Shown: piece after piece, positions 496-8,112 of the stretch
How positions within the stretch are numbered: the stretch's first letter is position 1
Layout of the letters: the number at the start of each line of letters is the position of its first letter
NCBI GenBank assembly: GCA_048882505.1
Contig: JBHLRO010000028.1
Coordinates: forward strand, 1-32,000
DNA: 32,000 nt
Direction: 5' to 3'
Source of the DNA: Candidatus Thorarchaeota archaeon
Lineage (GTDB): Archaea > Asgardarchaeota > Heimdallarchaeia > Hodarchaeales > Hodarchaeaceae
The notes under the pieces: model-generated
The model's input: the letters and a program-made list of their open reading frames with translations, nothing else
Databases searched by the model: none
What the model was told of the DNA's origin: nothing
Position numbers and translations under genes: made by a program

Positions 496-1824
496 ATGAG
501 CTTGCAGCAAAAAACTACGTGCTTTTACTGTAAAAAGATAAGTAGTTATGAATCTGATTATCCTTCTCGTGAAGGGGGCTTTACTACAGATGAAACAGCT
601 TTGAGGTGTGCGTTACATTCCCAATTCAAGTGTTTATATTGTAAAAAGTTTCATCATTTCAGCTGGCTATATTGGTGTCAAAATAAGCGACAACTCACCT
701 GTGGAGACTGTAATCCTCCCATTCTGAAACCACTAAAATTCTGGAGTACGACATATACGTACAGTTTTCACTGCTCACTATGTGAGGAGAATCACTATGA
801 TTTGTACTACGCTGAATACCAGGGTACACACCCCTGGCAAAATAGAATGAAGCGGTACGCAAAAGCAATCATAAAGGAAACTTCTAACAAAGAAGGATGG
901 ACCCCAAACCAGCCACGTGGAGGAAAGAAAATTTCACTCGAAGAGGCGTTAAGAATCCCAAATTCCACCTTAGATTTGAGAGAACCTTTCACAACAACTA
1001 AATTCCACTCTGTTCTAATAGATCAAGAGCAGCTCAAGCAATCCGATGTTCAGGACCAATGGGAAGAAACAAGCAACCAATGGATCGAATTAATAGATAA
1101 AACTACCCAAGAAGACAAAGGGGATCTGAACAGACAACTGATCATTGATCCTGCTATGTGGGAGATCATAGGAGACGTCAAAGAATTAGCGGTTTTGGAT
1201 GCAGGATGTGGGAATGGATATTTCAGTCGTATCCTTGCTCAAAAAGGGGCCATCGTATCAGGAGTCGATCAATCAAGGGTATTTATTGATTTTTGTAAAA
1301 AAAGAGAGAAAGAGGAAGCCCTTGGGATAAAATACCATGTCCAAAGTCTAGAAGACCTAGTAATATTTGAGAATGATAGCTTTGATCTAATTGTATCAAA
1401 CATTGTGTTTGTAGACGTCCTAGATTATAAGACTGCATTCAAAGAAATGGGAAGAATATTAAAGTCGTCGGGGAGGTTTGTATGGTCAAATTTACATCCT
1501 ATCTTCGGTCGGGTTAGTAACCTCTTTTATCGTATACCTTCGGACACTCCTCGGAATGAAGAACGGTTATATGTGATGATTGATAGATATTTTGATTCAG
1601 GAGGGACTTTAATATCCTGGGGAACTCTAAAGCCAATATGGCAATTCGATCGAACGTTATCCGAATATGTCACGGCCTTGAAAGAAGCAGGTTTTGTAAT
1701 TCGTGATATAGTTGAGCCAAAACCGAGTATTGATGTAATTAAAAAGCATCCCCGAAATCTTGCCTTCGATACTGACAGAATTCCATTCTTCATAATCTAT
1801 GAGTGTGTAAAATTTGCCGATTAA
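496..1824 (+). CDS. class I SAM-dependent methyltransferase with N-terminal Cys/His-rich zinc-binding domain
   Basis: SAM motif I VLDAGCGNGY, motif II SGVDQS, SFDLIVSN, and GRFVWS. The first 100 aa contain CxxC, CxxH, CxxC, CxxC and CxxC-x3-H. Confidence 0.85.
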   Translation: MSLQQKTTCFYCKKISSYESDYPSREGGFTTDETALRCALHSQFKCLYCKKFHHFSWLYWCQNKRQLTCGDCNPPILKPLKFWSTTYTYSFHCSLCEENHYDLYYAEYQGTHPWQNRMKRYAKAIIKETSNKEGWTPNQPRGGKKISLEEALRIPNSTLDLREPFTTTKFHSVLIDQEQLKQSDVQDQWEETSNQWIELIDKTTQEDKGDLNRQLIIDPAMWEIIGDVKELAVLDAGCGNGYFSRILAQKGAIVSGVDQSRVFIDFCKKREKEEALGIKYHVQSLEDLVIFENDSFDLIVSNIVFVDVLDYKTAFKEMGRILKSSGRFVWSNLHPIFGRVSNLFYRIPSDTPRNEERLYVMIDRYFDSGGTLISWGTLKPIWQFDRTLSEYVTALKEAGFVIRDIVEPKPSIDVIKKHPRNLAFDTDRIPFFIIYECVKFAD

Positions 1825-1889: not shown

Positions 1890-2660
1890 TCAATTCCGGC
1901 TATTATAGAAATTGTTGAAATTTTTACCGACGATAGTTAAAAGAATAATCAAGGTAAACAATCCTGCGGTTCCAGCAACGATAGTACTTGTCGCGAATTG
2001 TTTGACAATAATTCCTATGAATGCCCAAACAGCAACTAATCCGTATGCAACGTCATTTCTGGTCATAACTAAAATCATTGCGAGAACAGTCGCGACAAAT
2101 AGCACGATTCCTGTCCAAATTTCAGCCCCAACACCGAATCCATCCCAATCTATTGATAAGAAGAATACAGTAGTGTTGGCTATTGTGGCTACGGAGATCC
2201 AACCCAGATATACACTGAAAGGGACGTGAACTGCCCACTTTGTTCGTGGGTCAACCTCTATCAGTCCTATTTTTAATCGCCAATAGATCCCAATCAGAGT
2301 AAACAGAAGTCCAATCATTACGACCAAGGAGAGGAAGATCTGTTCGTAATGCCATAGAAAGATCCAAAGTGAATTAAAGATATTACTGATAATAAAAAGA
2401 CCTGAAAGAGCCGAATCGAATACTTTTTCTCTATTAACGGTCTGATAGAGCACGAAGACAATTAATAACGTATATATTATGCTCCAAATCGAAAAGACAT
2501 ATCCAGCTGGCGTAAAGGGGTTAGGATAGCCATCGGATAGTTCTTGGGTCGTTTTACCATTTAATGGGAGTGTAATTGCCAAAAAGTTGACAATTACCGT
2601 CATAATTAATGATATTATGTTTCCTATTGTAAACAACGAATTTTTTTCAGTTGATAACAT
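1890..2660 (-). CDS. TspO/MBR-related tryptophan-rich sensory membrane protein (long, about 8-TM form)
   Basis: PNPFTPAGYVFSIWSIIY, FNSLWIFLWH, and PFSVYLGWISVATIAN motifs; Trp-rich TM helices; AGGAG RBS upstream of ATG 2660. Confidence 0.75.
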   Translation of the reverse strand: MLSTEKNSLFTIGNIISLIMTVIVNFLAITLPLNGKTTQELSDGYPNPFTPAGYVFSIWSIIYTLLIVFVLYQTVNREKVFDSALSGLFIISNIFNSLWIFLWHYEQIFLSLVVMIGLLFTLIGIYWRLKIGLIEVDPRTKWAVHVPFSVYLGWISVATIANTTVFFLSIDWDGFGVGAEIWTGIVLFVATVLAMILVMTRNDVAYGLVAVWAFIGIIVKQFATSTIVAGTAGLFTLIILLTIVGKNFNNFYNSRN

Positions 2661-2714: not shown

Positions 2715-3665
2715 CTATGGTTTTACTGAATTGGGAAGAATATCGTGAATGAATACAAACAAATGATGATCTGAGGTGATCTGAGTATCTACTTCACCGA
2801 AAATATTTCCATGTTTTTGTAGGGCTTGTCCGCCTACTGCGATTTTTATCCTATCCTTGAAATGGGCTTTAATCTCCCTTATTTCCCGCAACAAGGTTCC
2901 GATAAATGCGTCAATAGTGACTGAAAAGCATATCCAGTCAGGTTTGATAGCCTGATCTTCTATATACTGAATTAATGATTTTATTGGTAGGGTTCTCCCC
3001 AAATTGACAACTCGATGTCCATTTTCACGCAGTAATAGCTCCAAGGCCAGTAATCCTATTACATGCTCTTCTCCCTCAACGGTAACCAATAGAACTGTTG
3101 CCTTGCTTTTATCCAGTTTTTGGGGAATCAACTGGATGATAAATTTCTCCAGCCTTGACGAAATGACATGTTCTTCGGCTGTCGTGAGAATTCCTTCCTC
3201 CCATCGTCTCCCTACTTCAACTAATAATGGTTTAATGAATGCGGTAACCAGCTGAAAGTGATCACTATATCTATCAGCGATTTCCTTGTTGAATATCACC
3301 ATATCATAGTCGTCGGAGATCAGGTTCTCGATATACGTGTCAAGAAGCTCTTGAAAGGAATGGTTTACATCATCTTGTAAGACAGTTTCTGATTTGGGCG
3401 GCACATCTCCAGGGGGCGGATTGTATTCTTTGGGATGAATATATCGGTGTTCAATGATATCATTTGCAAGTGTGATAACTGTATACTTACCCCGCTTGAG
3501 TGGTCGTCTTTCAATATTGATTAAGTTACGATATTGAAGTTCCTTGATCGCGTTAGAGATTGTTGAAAGTTTAAGGTTACAGGATACTTTGATTTCTGAA
3601 ACGGGGATTTCTCTTCCTCTATTTAACCTAAGATAATTTAGGATGACTTCTTTTGATGATGTCAA
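2715..3665 (-). CDS. cobalamin-binding transcriptional regulator, CarH/LitR-like sensor with N-terminal winged HTH
   Basis: aa 5-67 wHTH (VSEIKVSCNLKLSTISNAIKELQYRNLINIER), then a Pro-rich linker. Cap domain W155-x9-E165-H166. Rossmann B12 motif E199-x-H201-x2-G204, S248-x-T250, G278-G279. TTG start. Confidence 0.85.
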   Translation of the reverse strand: MTSSKEVILNYLRLNRGREIPVSEIKVSCNLKLSTISNAIKELQYRNLINIERRPLKRGKYTVITLANDIIEHRYIHPKEYNPPPGDVPPKSETVLQDDVNHSFQELLDTYIENLISDDYDMVIFNKEIADRYSDHFQLVTAFIKPLLVEVGRRWEEGILTTAEEHVISSRLEKFIIQLIPQKLDKSKATVLLVTVEGEEHVIGLLALELLLRENGHRVVNLGRTLPIKSLIQYIEDQAIKPDWICFSVTIDAFIGTLLREIREIKAHFKDRIKIAVGGQALQKHGNIFGEVDTQITSDHHLFVFIHDILPNSVKP

Positions 3666-3708: not shown

Positions 3709-4653
3709 CTAAATTTTCCTTAGGTATTCTAGTCTTACTTTAGAGGCGAGAACAAGTTTTCGAACCTTTGATACAACAGCCCTCTGGGTTAAAATTTGAT
3801 AATCTTGCCGTTTGATCTCATTCAAAATCTCACCATAAACTCTTGAGGCAACTTTAACCGTGTAAGCGGCTGCAGGTGGTAAATCATCAATTCCCAGATC
3901 TGCCTGCTTATAATAGCTATTCGCTCTTTCTGATTCATATCGGATTAATCGTTTCAAATCCTCAGTGACTACGTCCTTTTCAAGATCTACCGTTGAAACA
4001 TTATACATTTTTCTAGTTTTTTCAGGCAGATAAATACGTCCTTTATTGAAATCTTCCTTAATATCACGTAGTATATTTGTCAGTTGCATGGCTTTACCAA
4101 GATCTGATGCCCTTGCCAATGTACTAGGGGCAGGGTTGTCTAGAAAGATATAGGTCATCATTAGGCCAACAGTGCTAGCGACGCGGTACATATACAGGTC
4201 TAATTCTTCATCAGTTTTGTATTCCTTCTTTATTAAGTCCATACGAACACCTTCTATTAATTCATGCATGTATTCGATCGGAATACGATGTTTACGAATT
4301 GTGTCTCCGAAGGCCTGTAAAATCGGCTCCGATGACGTGTACCCGTGAGCTAATCGTGTAATCGTTTCTTTGAGATTATCTAGTTCCGCATTAATAGCCT
4401 CATTGGATGTGCCGTCCGGCGTCTCATCTACGATGTCATCGGTCAAACGACAGAATGCATATAACGCGGCAACAGATTTACGTTGCTCTGAGGGGAGAAA
4501 CCGGGACGCGAAGTAGAAAGACTTACTGTGGATTTCCATCCACTCCAGACAATGATTATAGCTTTCTTCAAGAGATTCCTTGACAAGATTGAACCTATTA
4601 TTCCAAGTTTCTGGAATTAACCCATAGTTCGTCTGTTCATGTGTTGAATACAT
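3709..4653 (-). CDS. crtB: phytoene synthase
   Basis: HSKSFYFASRFLP, YAFCRLTDDIVDE (first Asp-rich motif), YMYRVASTVGLMM, LGKAMQLTNILRDIKED (second motif), and GRIYLP. Confidence 0.95.
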   Translation of the reverse strand: MYSTHEQTNYGLIPETWNNRFNLVKESLEESYNHCLEWMEIHSKSFYFASRFLPSEQRKSVAALYAFCRLTDDIVDETPDGTSNEAINAELDNLKETITRLAHGYTSSEPILQAFGDTIRKHRIPIEYMHELIEGVRMDLIKKEYKTDEELDLYMYRVASTVGLMMTYIFLDNPAPSTLARASDLGKAMQLTNILRDIKEDFNKGRIYLPEKTRKMYNVSTVDLEKDVVTEDLKRLIRYESERANSYYKQADLGIDDLPPAAAYTVKVASRVYGEILNEIKRQDYQILTQRAVVSKVRKLVLASKVRLEYLRKI

Positions 4654-4707: not shown

Positions 4708-4763
4708 TTTATAAACTTCATGAAGCGATATTCATTTCATGAAATATATGAATTTTCATGTAA
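4708..4763. promoter_or_regulatory. divergent crtB/crtI promoter: palindromic TATA box plus three-fold palindromic operator array
   Basis: TTTATAAA at 4708-4715. CTTCATGAAG at 4716-4725, TTTCATGAAA at 4735-4744 and TTTCATGTAA at 4754-4763, with centres exactly 19 bp apart. Confidence 0.6.
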
Positions 4764-4784: not shown

Positions 4785-6383
4785 TTGATGAAAATACCTA
4801 AAACTGAAATAAATACTATCGGAGACGTATTTCCAATGATTAAGGAAGAAAATGGAAGATTTAAAACCCACAAAGACCAGGTCATCATTATTGGTTCGGG
4901 TTTCGGGGGTTTAGCAGCAGGAATCCGTATGCAGAATGCTGGTTTCAAGGTTAAAATACTGGAAAGGCGAGATCAAATCGGTGGTAGAGCTGGAGTCTAT
5001 AAGATTGATGGATTCAGCTTTGATGCTGGACCAACAGTGATAACGGCGCCTTTTATATTTGAAGATTTATTCAAATTGGCAAACCGTGATATAAATAATT
5101 ATATGGAGCTTTTACCGGTAACACCGTATTATCGAATTCATTTTGATGATCAAACTTATTTTGATTATGGTCATCCCGAAGATAATATTCCTCAAATCGC
5201 GGAAATGAGTCCAAAGGACGTAGAGGGGTATGAAAAGATGCTGGAAGCCATTGAACCTATATTCAAAAAAGGGTTCCAAGAGCTCTCGTTTAAACCCTTT
5301 ACAACGTTCTCTAGCATGCTTAAGGTTGCTCCTTCGTTACTTAAGCTTCAATCATATCGCTCCAATTACAATTTTGTATCAAAGTACATCAAAAATGAAA
5401 AATTACGCCGTGTTTTCTCATTTCATCCCCTCCTCATAGGGGGAAATCCCTTTACTGTCCCTTCAATTTACAGCTTGATCCAGTATTTAGAAAAGACATA
5501 TGGGGTTTGGTTTGTCAAGGGTGGAACGACAAGTCTTGTTCACGGACTTGCTACTCTTTTTACCGAATTAGGTGGAAAAATCATATTAAATGCTGAAATC
5601 TCAGATATTAACATAGAGAATGGCCGAGTTACTGGAGTAACAACTGAGGATGGGCATAAATATCCGTCTAATACTGTGATTTCGAATGCCGATGTTGCAT
5701 TTACCTACACCAAACTGATAGAGAGCAAATGGCGTAAAAAGAATTCAGATAAACGCTATAAAAAGGCAAAATATAGTATGGGACTCGTGGTCATCTACTT
5801 TGGAACCAAAAAACAATATCCAGACATGAAACACCACACAATACTTCTAGGAAGTCGTTATAAAGGATTACTTGAGGATATATTCAAGAATAAAGTTTTA
5901 TCGGATGATTTTTCTAGTTATTTGCATGTTCCAACTCGAACAGACCCCAGCCTAGCTCCAGAAGGCCATGAAACCTTTTACATCCTAATTCCAGTACCTC
6001 ATCTGGATTCGGGAGTGAATTGGGAGGAGTTAGCTGAGCCCTTCAAAGAAAAAGTCTTTACTTTTTTGGAGGAGAATTACCTTCCTGATCTCAAGGAAAA
6101 TTTGGTTGTCGAAAAGGTGTTCACTCCGCTAGATTTTCACACCGAATACCTCGCTACCAAAGGATCGGGATTCTCTCTTGAACCTATTTTTACTCAATCG
6201 GCTTGGTTCAGACCTCATAATCGATCAGAAGATATAGAGGGTCTTTACTTCGTGGGAGCTGGAACTCATCCCGGTGCTGGCCTCCCTGGCGTTGTTTCAA
6301 GTGCTAAAATCACCACAGATCTAATTCTGGAAGATCTTAATGGTGGTTCACCTAATCTTGCCCCTGGAGCTTCCATTAATTAA
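4785..6383 (+). CDS. crtI: phytoene desaturase (CrtI-type FAD-dependent carotenoid desaturase)
   Basis: IIIGSGFGGLAAG FAD motif, FDAGPTVIT, FSFHPLLIGGNPF, and C-terminal YFVGAGTHPGAGLPGVVSSAK signature. Start may be ATG 4788. Confidence 0.95.
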   Translation: MMKIPKTEINTIGDVFPMIKEENGRFKTHKDQVIIIGSGFGGLAAGIRMQNAGFKVKILERRDQIGGRAGVYKIDGFSFDAGPTVITAPFIFEDLFKLANRDINNYMELLPVTPYYRIHFDDQTYFDYGHPEDNIPQIAEMSPKDVEGYEKMLEAIEPIFKKGFQELSFKPFTTFSSMLKVAPSLLKLQSYRSNYNFVSKYIKNEKLRRVFSFHPLLIGGNPFTVPSIYSLIQYLEKTYGVWFVKGGTTSLVHGLATLFTELGGKIILNAEISDINIENGRVTGVTTEDGHKYPSNTVISNADVAFTYTKLIESKWRKKNSDKRYKKAKYSMGLVVIYFGTKKQYPDMKHHTILLGSRYKGLLEDIFKNKVLSDDFSSYLHVPTRTDPSLAPEGHETFYILIPVPHLDSGVNWEELAEPFKEKVFTFLEENYLPDLKENLVVEKVFTPLDFHTEYLATKGSGFSLEPIFTQSAWFRPHNRSEDIEGLYFVGAGTHPGAGLPGVVSSAKITTDLILEDLNGGSPNLAPGASIN

Positions 6384-6397
6384 ACGGAGGAGGATAT

Positions 6398-7231
6398 ATG
6401 TTAACCTACTTAGATTTTCTTATCTATTTCATTTTTTTACCCTTTTTTGGGGTTTTCCTCATAAATTTATTTGAATCACGTAGGAAAAAAGGCAAAAAAC
6501 AGACGTTATTAGGAATTAATCCCGTGATGGGGCTTTTTATTTTAAGTACAATTGCTTTAATTTATACTACGCCTTGGGATAATTATTTGGTGGCAACAGG
6601 TGTTTGGTTTTATGAACTAAATCAGATTTTGGGGATCATCATTGGTTTTGTACCAGTCGAGGAGTACATCTTTTTTGTTGTCCAACCCCTATTGGTCGGT
6701 TCAATCGTCATATGGGGTCTAAATTATTATCAACCCAGCTCAATACAACCAAAAAGCAGATCCTTAATAAGATCAATCGGTTTCTTGACGTTTTTCTTAC
6801 CGTGGATTCTCTCTCTCATCATTTTTATTTTAGATTTTCCGAATGGAACGTATTTAGCGTTAATCATTATGTGGTTTTTCCCTCCTATTCTACTCCAATT
6901 GGGATTTGGAGCTGATATTCTCTGGAGTCATCGAAAACTCGTTTTACTCGCGATCCTCATTCCATCCCTTTATCTCTCCGTGGTTGATGCATACGCAATC
7001 TTCAATGGTGTGTGGACGATAGCTCCAACAACCTCTTTAGGCATTTTGATTGGTGGAGTTCTGCCATTAGAAGAAATGGTTTTCTTTTTTGTCACAAACA
7101 TTCTGATTGTCTTTGGTTTTATACTACTGATGGATGTTCATAGTCAAAAACGGATGAGATCATTAGTAACGTTCCTGAAAAACGTGTTATTATACAGATT
7201 TATTGGTAAAGAAAAGAGAACCGTGTCATAA
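6398..7231 (+). CDS. crtY: lycopene beta-cyclase, fused two-repeat membrane (CrtYcd) type
   Basis: Two repeats: YTTPWDNYLVATGVW...GFVPVEEYIFF and VVDAYAIFNGVW...GVLPLEEMVFFF. GGAGGAGG RBS 15 nt after the crtI stop. Confidence 0.9.
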   Translation: MLTYLDFLIYFIFLPFFGVFLINLFESRRKKGKKQTLLGINPVMGLFILSTIALIYTTPWDNYLVATGVWFYELNQILGIIIGFVPVEEYIFFVVQPLLVGSIVIWGLNYYQPSSIQPKSRSLIRSIGFLTFFLPWILSLIIFILDFPNGTYLALIIMWFFPPILLQLGFGADILWSHRKLVLLAILIPSLYLSVVDAYAIFNGVWTIAPTTSLGILIGGVLPLEEMVFFFVTNILIVFGFILLMDVHSQKRMRSLVTFLKNVLLYRFIGKEKRTVS

Positions 7232-7243
7232 GAGTGAATAATC

Positions 7244-7720
7244 ATGTCTAAAGTGCAATCCAACTCGATTTTGAGAATAAATCTATCTAAATCTTATTTT
7301 CGGGTAGTAATTCTCCTCACATATCTATTGGGGATATCATTAATGCTGGTGCGGATTATCACCAACAGTACGTTTGCTGAGCTTATACCTTTCTGGTACG
7401 ATGCATTAGTAGCATTAGGAGGGATTTACGGAGGTGGATTATTACTATTGGCGCTAAGGAAATCAAAAATAGTCATTTCTCACCCCGTAGACAGATTTGC
7501 TTTCTATTTAATTGCATTTCACTTATTGGCGGCAACAATTGGGCATGTTGCTATGATTTTAATCCAAAACCATGAGATACTGAACCTCATTTCTCTTGAA
7601 ATGGTATATCTCCTTCTCGGAGGAATGATCACACTAACATTGTACAGTTTCAGAATCAAAGGGGATTACCACAAGGAAAAGTCCACGAAGATTCCCAGTA
7701 TTAATCCGTACAAACAGTGA
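7244..7720 (+). CDS. hypothetical 4-TM membrane protein, likely last gene of crtI-crtY operon
   Basis: Starts 12 nt after the crtY stop; four hydrophobic segments; overlaps the convergent gene by 55 nt. Confidence 0.65.
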   Translation: MSKVQSNSILRINLSKSYFRVVILLTYLLGISLMLVRIITNSTFAELIPFWYDALVALGGIYGGGLLLLALRKSKIVISHPVDRFAFYLIAFHLLAATIGHVAMILIQNHEILNLISLEMVYLLLGGMITLTLYSFRIKGDYHKEKSTKIPSINPYKQ

Positions 7721-8112
7721 TTTCCTATACTTATGTAAACAAATTTTGGATAGGAGAAAAGATTATTGCCAGTTAACCATTTATGGACAGGTGCTAACGT
7801 TACCAGCCACACAATCAGTGCATATGTTACCCCTACCACCACTAATATGTTTTCCATTTTCAACAAACTTACTAGAACAAGAAAGGGAATGGCGAGTAAT
7901 CCCCCATTGAAGAAATGGAGCAGATATACCAAGATGTTCGTTTCTTGGATTGGCCTTCCGAGGAATTTTTCTATCATACCTTTCGACTCATCCCACTCTA
8001 AAACACCTTGAAATCCCCATTTACGCCAAACGAGAATATTTCCAATTGACATAATCCCAGTCGCTAATATTCCCATTATAAATCCTTTAACGATTAGAAA
8101 AAAAATGTCCAT
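7666..8112 (-). CDS. 4-TM membrane protein with conserved His (DUF6789-like), paralogue 1
   Basis: GILATGIM, LLHFFNGG, YALIVW, HKWLTGNN, NHCLYGLILG. Confidence 0.7.
   Translation of the reverse strand: MDIFFLIVKGFIMGILATGIMSIGNILVWRKWGFQGVLEWDESKGMIEKFLGRPIQETNILVYLLHFFNGGLLAIPFLVLVSLLKMENILVVVGVTYALIVWLVTLAPVHKWLTGNNLFSYPKFVYISIGNHCLYGLILGIFVDFSLW

Follow-up and report, generated by a model that had tools for sequence, protein, structure and literature searches.

The stretch of DNA considered here, the first 32,000 nucleotides of the forward strand of contig JBHLRO010000028.1 (the window) from a Candidatus Thorarchaeota archaeon of the Hodarchaeaceae (assembly GCA_048882505.1), raises the question of whether an Asgard archaeon can control carotenoid biosynthesis by means of a vitamin B12-based light sensor. 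The window has a G+C content of 39%; its contig (C28) is one of 83 in a 4.32-Mb genome with an estimated completeness of 94.6%. On the minus strand, at 2715-3665, it encodes a regulator of 316 residues (open reading frame and translation, TTG start), in which a winged helix-turn-helix (wHTH) is joined to a B12-binding module resembling that of the bacterial photoreceptor CarH. The initial annotation, made from the letters of the sequence, proposed an archaeal B12 photoreceptor with a different output domain, and possibly a different oligomer switch, controlling carotenogenesis. The motifs, the wHTH and the linkage to carotenoid (crt) genes have stood, whereas adenosylcobalamin (AdoCbl) binding and the light response are those parts of the proposal that we infer. 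The domain anatomy, signature residues, gene order, promoter palindrome and adenosyltransferase described below are computed results; taken together they make it probable, in our judgement, that the protein is an AdoCbl-dependent photoreceptor-repressor, which would be bound to DNA in the dark and release carotenogenesis in the light.

The start of the regulator agrees, in alignment, with the annotated starts of its homologues. A full-length AlphaFold2 model (24 homologues as input; predicted local distance difference test, pLDDT, 84.7) comprises a wHTH (residues 1-66; 3468-3665, minus strand, as for all parts of the protein), a variable linker (residues 67-101; 3363-3467), a four-helix bundle of B12-binding_2 type (residues 102-179; 3129-3362) and a Rossmann-type B12-binding domain (residues 190-309; 2739-3098), the last two forming the cobalamin-binding domain (CBD). 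The linker includes the Pro-rich segment YNPPPGDVPP (residues 81-90), and its residues 82-100 are predicted to be disordered (pLDDT <50) and are unconserved among homologues. The profile scan went as the annotation had predicted, with a B12-binding_2 plus B12-binding module, a wHTH and no MerR domain: Pfam B12-binding matches with E 4.7e-12 and B12-binding_2 with E 3e-4, just under the cut-off; MarR and MarR_2 match weakly over residues 8-54 (E 0.03-0.04), yet MarR_2 reaches E 3e-6 in the homologue P0055; neither MerR nor MerR_1 matches the regulator at E <= 1.

The MarR/ArsR-like, non-MerR nature claimed for the N-terminus is thus borne out by Pfam, and likewise by AlphaFold2 and Foldseek. 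Modelled alone, the N-domain (pLDDT 91.7) has the canonical H1-H2-H3-wing topology, with helices assigned by DSSP to residues 4-14 (H1), 22-29 (H2) and 33-45 (H3, the recognition helix, with TISNAIKEL), followed by strands 49-56 and 60-66, such that residues 49-66 (RRPLKRGKYTV) form a beta-hairpin wing. A Foldseek search with this domain against the PDB returned MarR, PadR, ArsR and archaeal wHTH proteins (TM 0.6-0.7, E 5e-3), including 3r0a, 1ub9, MarR (5h3r) and CzrA, and no MerR protein was among the matches. The predicted fold places the N-domain in the MarR/ArsR/PadR-like winged-helix clan, outside the MarR family proper, because the classical MarR dimerisation helices are missing.

The case for light sensing begins with the CBD. 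All of the signature positions originally reported were recovered exactly by pattern matching, i.e. W155-x9-E165-H166, E199-x-H201-x2-G204, S248-x-T250 and G278-G279, as were E156, E200, R224, T225 and the linker sequence. The bundle carries G152xxW155 and E165-H166 (codons 3168-3203); the Rossmann domain carries E199xH201xxG204 (codons 3054-3071), G223xxxP227, S248xT250 and G278G279. When Thermus thermophilus CarH (TtCarH), taken from plasmid pTT27 (NC_005838), was aligned to the regulator, the spacings and correspondences given in the annotation proved right: W131 aligns with W155, H132 with E156, E141 with E165, H142 with H166, R176 with E200, H177 with H201 and D201 with T225; a further pair is P203 of TtCarH and P227. 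H201 is thus aligned with the lower axial ligand of TtCarH, His177. At the level of sequence, the regulator therefore has both the four-helix bundle with Wx9EH that caps the 5'-deoxyadenosyl group in CarH/LitR proteins, and the D/ExHxxG...SxT/V...GG motif with its axial His. According to PMC9304148, Wx9EH contacts the Ado group and separates B12-dependent CarH from B12-independent CarA. The signature given for light-responsive CBDs in PMC11796333 consists of GxxW, EH, GxxH and GxxxP; all four elements are present (G152xxW155, E165H166, G198xxH201, G223xxxP227), with residues G198 and G223 being variable across family members. The MerR-type N-terminal HTH of CarH/LitR proteins is absent, with no alignment to the TtCarH DNA-binding domain, and the NCBIfam model NF052513 (TransRegCarH) scores 39 bits versus a 400-bit cut-off, over the CBD only.

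Are these motifs a property of one sequence or of a family? Of the 44 matches obtained in a word-indexed search of 5.8 billion proteins, ~41 are full-length (300-380 residues). The named matches are all from Asgard metagenome-assembled genomes (MAGs; labels Heimdallarchaeota, Hodarchaeales and similar), and bacterial MerR-CarH proteins come next, at E 1e-11. On the sequences searched, the regulator family is small and confined to Asgard archaea. Within its phylum it is present in only 16 of 400 genomes, 14 of which (the source genome included) are among 22 grouped genomes and two in one other family. W155, E165, H166, H201, T250, G278 and G279 are invariant in 24 members of 35-92% identity and, because of this, the motifs are, on the alignment, not attributable to chance. 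The winged helix is the most conserved region of all, its recognition helix and wing being nearly invariant (ISNAIKEL...RRPLKRGxYT, with I36, S37, N38, A39 and I40 invariant). Four members (P0027, P0033, P0045 and P0046) have a second winged-helix-like domain N-terminal to the conserved one, and in P0020 an insert of ~65 residues separates the winged helix from the B12 domain. A search for stand-alone winged-helix relatives gave only six short proteins on short contigs, which are probably fragments.

The genomic context points to carotenoid biosynthesis as the regulated process. As the annotation had it, the regulator gene lies inside the crtB operon, starting 43 nt past the stop codon of crtB (3709-4653, minus strand; phytoene synthase, Pfam SQS_PSY E 9.5e-78), the first gene of the operon. 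Divergent from crtB, together with genes for further membrane proteins, is a crtI-type phytoene desaturase gene (4785-6383, plus strand; Pfam Amino_oxidase E 1.6e-35, and NAD_binding_8), the start of which may be the ATG at 4788; it is followed by a gene for a membrane protein (6398-7231, plus strand), which is a candidate lycopene cyclase by position, has no Pfam match in the window, and whose equivalents in L003, L004 and one further homologous locus give weak matches to PF18916 (Lycopene_cyc). A TspO-like membrane protein is encoded 54 nt downstream of the regulator (1890-2660, minus strand), probably by the last gene of the crtB operon. It has no Pfam match, its identity coming from comparison with Thermus: the 'tryptophan-rich sensory protein' that belongs to the carotenoid/carH cluster on T. 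thermophilus pTT27 shows 42% identity to it (E 1e-45). Three kinds of gene, i.e. crtB, the B12 regulator and the TspO-like gene, are therefore common to the archaeal and Thermus clusters, a likeness that may reflect gene transfer between archaeon and bacterium.

This arrangement is conserved. Among nine homologous loci drawn from metagenomes and MAGs, the regulator directly follows crtB in eight, including members only 30-32% identical in the CBD, and a divergent crtI is present in seven, all among the crtB-linked eight. In the 22 related genomes, the regulator occurs in 14 and crtB in 15, with the two genes adjacent in all 14 and the regulator in none of the seven crtB-less genomes; since these genomes are kin, this co-occurrence is a pattern rather than a statistical test. 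The annotation's expectation that homologues would be found in archaeal MAGs and be linked to crt genes is hence supported, the homologues being confined to Asgard MAGs and nearly always linked to crtB/crtI (8/9 loci; 14/14 genomes), and all of the in silico checks it proposed, i.e. the profile scan and the survey of homologues and neighbourhoods, gave the predicted outcome. In one of the homologous loci (L001), the crt cluster has genes for photolyase and UvdE as neighbours.

If the regulator acts on the carotenoid genes, its sites should be sought in their shared promoter region. The spacer between crtB and crtI is 131 bp long and contains three TTCATG(A/T)A palindromes within 4717-4762, exactly 19 bp apart. 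Candidate site 1 (TTCATGAA within CTTCATGAAG; 4717-4724) abuts the TATA-like sequence TTTATAAA (4708-4715) on the crtB side; candidate site 2 (TTCATGAA; 4736-4743), 19 bp from site 1, is accompanied on the crtI side by the TATA-like AAATATAT (4742-4749); and candidate site 3 (TTCATGTA, with one mismatch; 4755-4762), 19 bp from site 2, is 23-30 nt upstream of the crtI start codon. The candidate sites in the window thus flank the TATA-like boxes of both divergent promoters. There are 176 exact copies of TTCATGAA in the 4.3-Mb genome, and the crtB/crtI spacer is the only place where at least two occur within 45 bp.

The palindrome recurs where it would be expected. TTCATGAA, often extended to ACTTCATGAAGT, is present in the equivalent promoter of all eight other loci, and an unbiased survey returned it as the 8-mer found in more of the nine promoter regions than any other. 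Promoters make up 1.2% of the 142 kb compared, and contain 16 of the 25 exact copies (binomial P ~2e-25); two more copies are at promoter edges, overlapping a flanking start codon. Pairs at a spacing of 18-19 bp are present in six loci. The candidate sites are located 3-105 nt ahead of crtB; in most loci they are preceded by an AT-rich TATA-like box and followed by the start codon. In L018, where the regulator is not linked to crt genes, ACTTCATGAAGT (12 bp) is found 44 nt upstream of the regulator's own start codon, as the only copy in the 11-kb locus. The combination of an invariant recognition helix and an invariant site fits the expected appearance of a cognate regulator-operator pair, and the palindromes are likely, on their conservation and position, to be the binding sites of the regulator on the carotenoid gene promoter. 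In two loci, L003 (at 5973) and L016 (at 5981), crtB has at its 3' end an extra exact TTCATGAA copy, which precedes the regulator start by 20-28 nt and may serve the regulator as an internal operator or promoter. A wider regulon was sought in the whole genome with a symmetrised 16-nt matrix built from 18 sites; the 41 matches, mostly inside long open reading frames, were not distinguishable from chance, and a few intergenic single matches adjoin TPR, ferredoxin and Rce1-like genes; a regulon beyond the crt promoters is accordingly not proposed.

The following sequence of events would account for these features. In the dark, AdoCbl-loaded B12 domains would form head-to-tail pairs like those of CarH, and probably larger assemblies, so setting the winged helices on two or three TTCATGAA palindromes over the TATA box, B recognition element (BRE) and start regions of crtB and crtI, where the bound regulator would block assembly of the archaeal pre-initiation complex (TATA-binding protein, TBP; transcription factor B, TFB; and RNA polymerase). 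Green, blue or UV light would cleave the Co-C bond; the four-helix bundle would shift, the oligomer loosen and the repressor leave the DNA, and crtB, the genes for the regulator and the TspO-like protein, and the crtI operon would be transcribed more strongly, leading to photoprotective carotenoids. Being encoded in the crtB operon, the regulator would also limit its own level.

Structural modelling is consistent with the first of these steps. When two copies of the CBD were submitted to complex prediction, the score was 0.60 versus 0.00 for the best control. A score of 0.60 was reached by 20 of 30 proteins solved as same-chain pairs and, among 23 proteins solved as single chains, by one. Agreement between the runs extends to at least 92% of contacts (partner pLDDT at least 84). 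The predicted interface is symmetric and head-to-tail, involving helix 161-184 and 220-241, and contains positions aligned with TtCarH dimer residues. Because CarH dimers have already been solved, the score may reflect likeness to those structures rather than independent evidence.

The cofactor could be supplied by a PduO-type ATP:cob(I)alamin adenosyltransferase encoded in the genome (E 9e-52), which also encodes seven other B12-domain proteins, with eight B12-binding domains in all. Cobalamin itself is probably imported and then adenosylated, because no CobS (PF02654) was found in the genome at its 94.6% completeness. Among genes related to light, no DNA photolyase (PF00875) was found in the same genome, and rhodopsin (PF01036) gave no match there or in the control genomes.

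Several of these observations weigh against assignment as a photoreceptor-repressor, including the failure to find CobS and photolyase. As the annotation had noted, neither the light-state His of TtCarH nor its Arg-Asp salt bridge is kept: H132, the upper ligand in the light state, is replaced by E156, with His at this position in no family member, and the Arg176-Asp201 salt bridge is unconserved. As judged from the alignment, the light state and oligomer switch are for these reasons not simply transferable from TtCarH. The B12-binding_2 match is below its Pfam cut-off; the TATA boxes were assigned by eye; and, as the site of a winged-helix dimer, a palindrome of 8 bp would be short. Sequence scores are similar for corrinoid carriers (MttC 3e-8, MtgC 1e-9) and CarH (8e-6, 5e-10), such that a plain sequence search is unable to separate photoreceptors from corrinoid carriers, which the motifs are able to do. 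Finally, B12 binding, the light response, repression over activation and the oligomer state are all matters that we infer from sequence. With respect to the light state, PMC9304148 ascribes the His next to the Trp to 'many' CarH homologues rather than to all of them, and this His is therefore no strict hallmark of CarH. CtMerR and the photocobilins are likewise without the bis-His state, according to PMC11796333, and because of this its absence is no argument against photoreception.

How far do other explanations account for the same observations? The one that survives best, though we regard it as unlikely, is that the protein responds to B12 but not to light, i.e. that it reports cobalamin availability or redox state, binds hydroxocobalamin photolysed elsewhere in the manner of AerR, or is B12-independent in the manner of CarA. 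A Foldseek search against the PDB gave as best matches photocobilin (8j2w), AerR (7te2), the Chloracidobacterium MerR-B12 protein (8jbs) and TtCarH (5c8d), with E 5e-9 to 1e-7, AerR thus being the second-best; the light-state His is missing; the organism probably depends on imported B12; and CarA is a member of the fold that has lost B12 dependence (PMC9304148). By the same source, however, CarA has lost the Trp of Wx9EH, a motif invariant here, and all of the published light-responsive signature elements (four of four; PMC11796333) are present. The conserved, tight linkage is to carotenoid genes, rather than to B12 uptake or B12-dependent enzymes, and the PduO adenosyltransferase argues against a B12/redox sensor unrelated to light.

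It is also conceivable, but rather improbable, that the regulator is a light-dependent activator, with its B12-bound or photolysed form on TTCATGAA recruiting TBP/TFB to the crt promoters. Site 1 of the window lies immediately upstream of the crtB TATA-like box, on the BRE side, where some archaeal activators act. By contrast, in L001, L002, L016 and L017 the sites are between the TATA-like box and the crtB start codon, the usual position for archaeal repressors, with that in L016 abutting the ATG, and site 3 of the window is downstream of the crtI TATA-like box. Moreover, the characterised CarH/LitR proteins are all repressors.

A role for the protein as corrinoid carrier in a methyltransferase system, or as a subunit of another enzyme, with an incidental HTH and fortuitous crt linkage, is very improbable: MttC, MtgC and MetH are among its best PDB/NCBIfam sequence matches and homologues carry the JGI label 'methanogenic corrinoid protein MtbC1', but B12 photoreceptor structures outrank MttC and MetH (methionine synthase) in Foldseek, the winged helix is the most conserved part and the promoter palindrome is conserved, and membership of MtaC/MttC/MtbC was rejected given the conserved wHTH and no cognate methyltransferase genes near the regulator in the window and homologous loci. 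Each of the three alternatives is less consistent with the motif conservation, site positions and gene context than is an AdoCbl-dependent photoreceptor-repressor.

With that assignment, the closest functional counterparts would be the CarH/LitR proteins of T. thermophilus, M. xanthus and B. megaterium, which have in common with the regulator the two-subdomain B12 module with Wx9EH and ExHxxG...SxT...GG at equal spacings, a head-to-tail dimer surface (predicted here), a gene beside crtB/crtI and several operator repeats over a carotenoid promoter (candidates here). By contrast with these proteins, the regulator has a MarR/PadR/ArsR-like winged helix rather than MerR as its DNA-binding domain, lacks the equivalents of His132 and the Arg176-Asp201 pair of TtCarH and, being in an archaeal host, would have a TBP/TFB promoter as its target. 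The operators also differ, the candidate here being an 8-bp palindrome repeated at ~19 bp, whereas that of TtCarH is reported in the 2015 structure paper to consist of tandem 11-bp direct repeats.

In its CBD, the regulator also resembles CtMerR and the other CBDs of the SignatureFinder study (PMC11796333) and the photocobilins (PMC10979010), with which it shares the signature, the missing bis-His state and its top structural matches (8jbs, 8j2w). These proteins, however, come from bacteria, and the partners of their CBDs are MerR, globin-like/biliverdin or diguanylate cyclase domains. SignatureFinder refers in general to light-responsive B12 domains joined to 'HTH' and other outputs (PMC11796333); an archaeal or winged-helix member is not mentioned in its main text, and its network may contain such sequences. 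In its output, the regulator resembles CrtR of Corynebacterium glutamicum, a MarR-type winged-helix repressor also encoded beside a crt operon and acting on its promoter, which differs in having no B12 domain, in being a classical MarR dimer and, by the title of the paper, in sensing isoprenoid pyrophosphates (PMC5401885, PMC6739363).

CBDs of this kind with an N-terminal domain other than MerR are not confined to this family. With the B12 domain alone as query, an exhaustive HMMER search gave 5503 relatives. All 142 of the nearest representatives retain G152 and W155, and conservation of E165/H166 among them is at least 90%. MerR is the partner domain in 34 and XRE-type HTH_3 in 30, with single cases of GGDEF, HD and others, and many are stand-alone. 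A maximum-likelihood tree of 156 B12 domains unites the winged-helix proteins in a single clade (SH-aLRT, the Shimodaira-Hasegawa-like approximate likelihood ratio test, 95). Sister to this clade (joint support 98) is a family that bears the name Thaumarchaeota/Nitrososphaerota in NCBI. Like the regulator, both this sister family and the XRE(HTH_3)-CBD class combine a photoreceptor-type CBD, with Trp and EH, with a non-MerR N-domain; they differ in their DNA-binding domains and in that the two examples examined are without crt linkage. No characterisation of either class was found in the literature.

Members of the thaumarchaeal family (P0098, P0072, P0125, P0155 and relatives) have 282-307 residues, keep the Trp and EH, and have a conserved N-domain of ~55 residues (MVYIRxKKIKGxDYAYLVxSxW...QxxIKYLG) with no Pfam match. 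In the one locus examined (L020/L021, 6001-6858), the gene is divergent from an epimerase/DUF1731 gene, not crt. On these sequences, the family could represent further archaeal B12 sensors. In the XRE/Cro-type class (P0060-P0063 and ~26 further representatives), HTH_3 takes the place of MerR, and the example in locus L019 (541-1434) is beside a GGDEF/AraC-type gene, not crt. A DUF6789 protein is encoded near the B12 regulator both in the window (7666-8112, minus strand) and in the thaumarchaeal locus L020 (4051-4515), which may be coincidence. Elsewhere in the window, the gene at 496-1824 (plus strand) encodes a class I SAM methyltransferase (Methyltransf_11, E 2e-20), whose N-terminal extension (~200 residues) is rich in Cys pairs and zinc-ribbon-like.

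The annotation's surmise that the architecture is without described precedent agrees with the literature searched: no archaeal or winged-helix B12 photoreceptor was found described in the relevant parts of the CarH/myxobacterial, M. xanthus review, SignatureFinder and photocobilin papers. The system is probably an undescribed archaeal light switch. On balance, with some leaning in its favour, we consider that it would be the first archaeal B12 photoreceptor and light-dependent transcription factor, in which a CarH-like sensor was joined independently to a family-specific winged helix and gates a TBP/TFB promoter via TTCATGAA; the thaumarchaeal sister family would then imply an archaeal lineage of non-MerR cobalamin sensors, and the Asgard archaea of this clade would answer light transcriptionally.

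Among prokaryotes, the Asgard archaea are the closest relatives of eukaryotes. Little is understood of how light regulates transcription in archaea, and in the literature searched no such regulation was found described for the Asgard archaea; with a nameable sensor, operator and target operon, the question becomes testable in vitro without culture. If the proposal is true, the CarH light module would be transferable between domains of life and between DNA-binding domains of different classes, and could provide an optogenetic green-light switch with a new, short and defined operator and a DNA-binding domain unrelated to MerR. For the organism itself, it would mean that a lineage of Heimdallarchaeia type is exposed to light and oxygen at levels that call for inducible carotenoids, and that this lineage depends on external B12 to sense the light.

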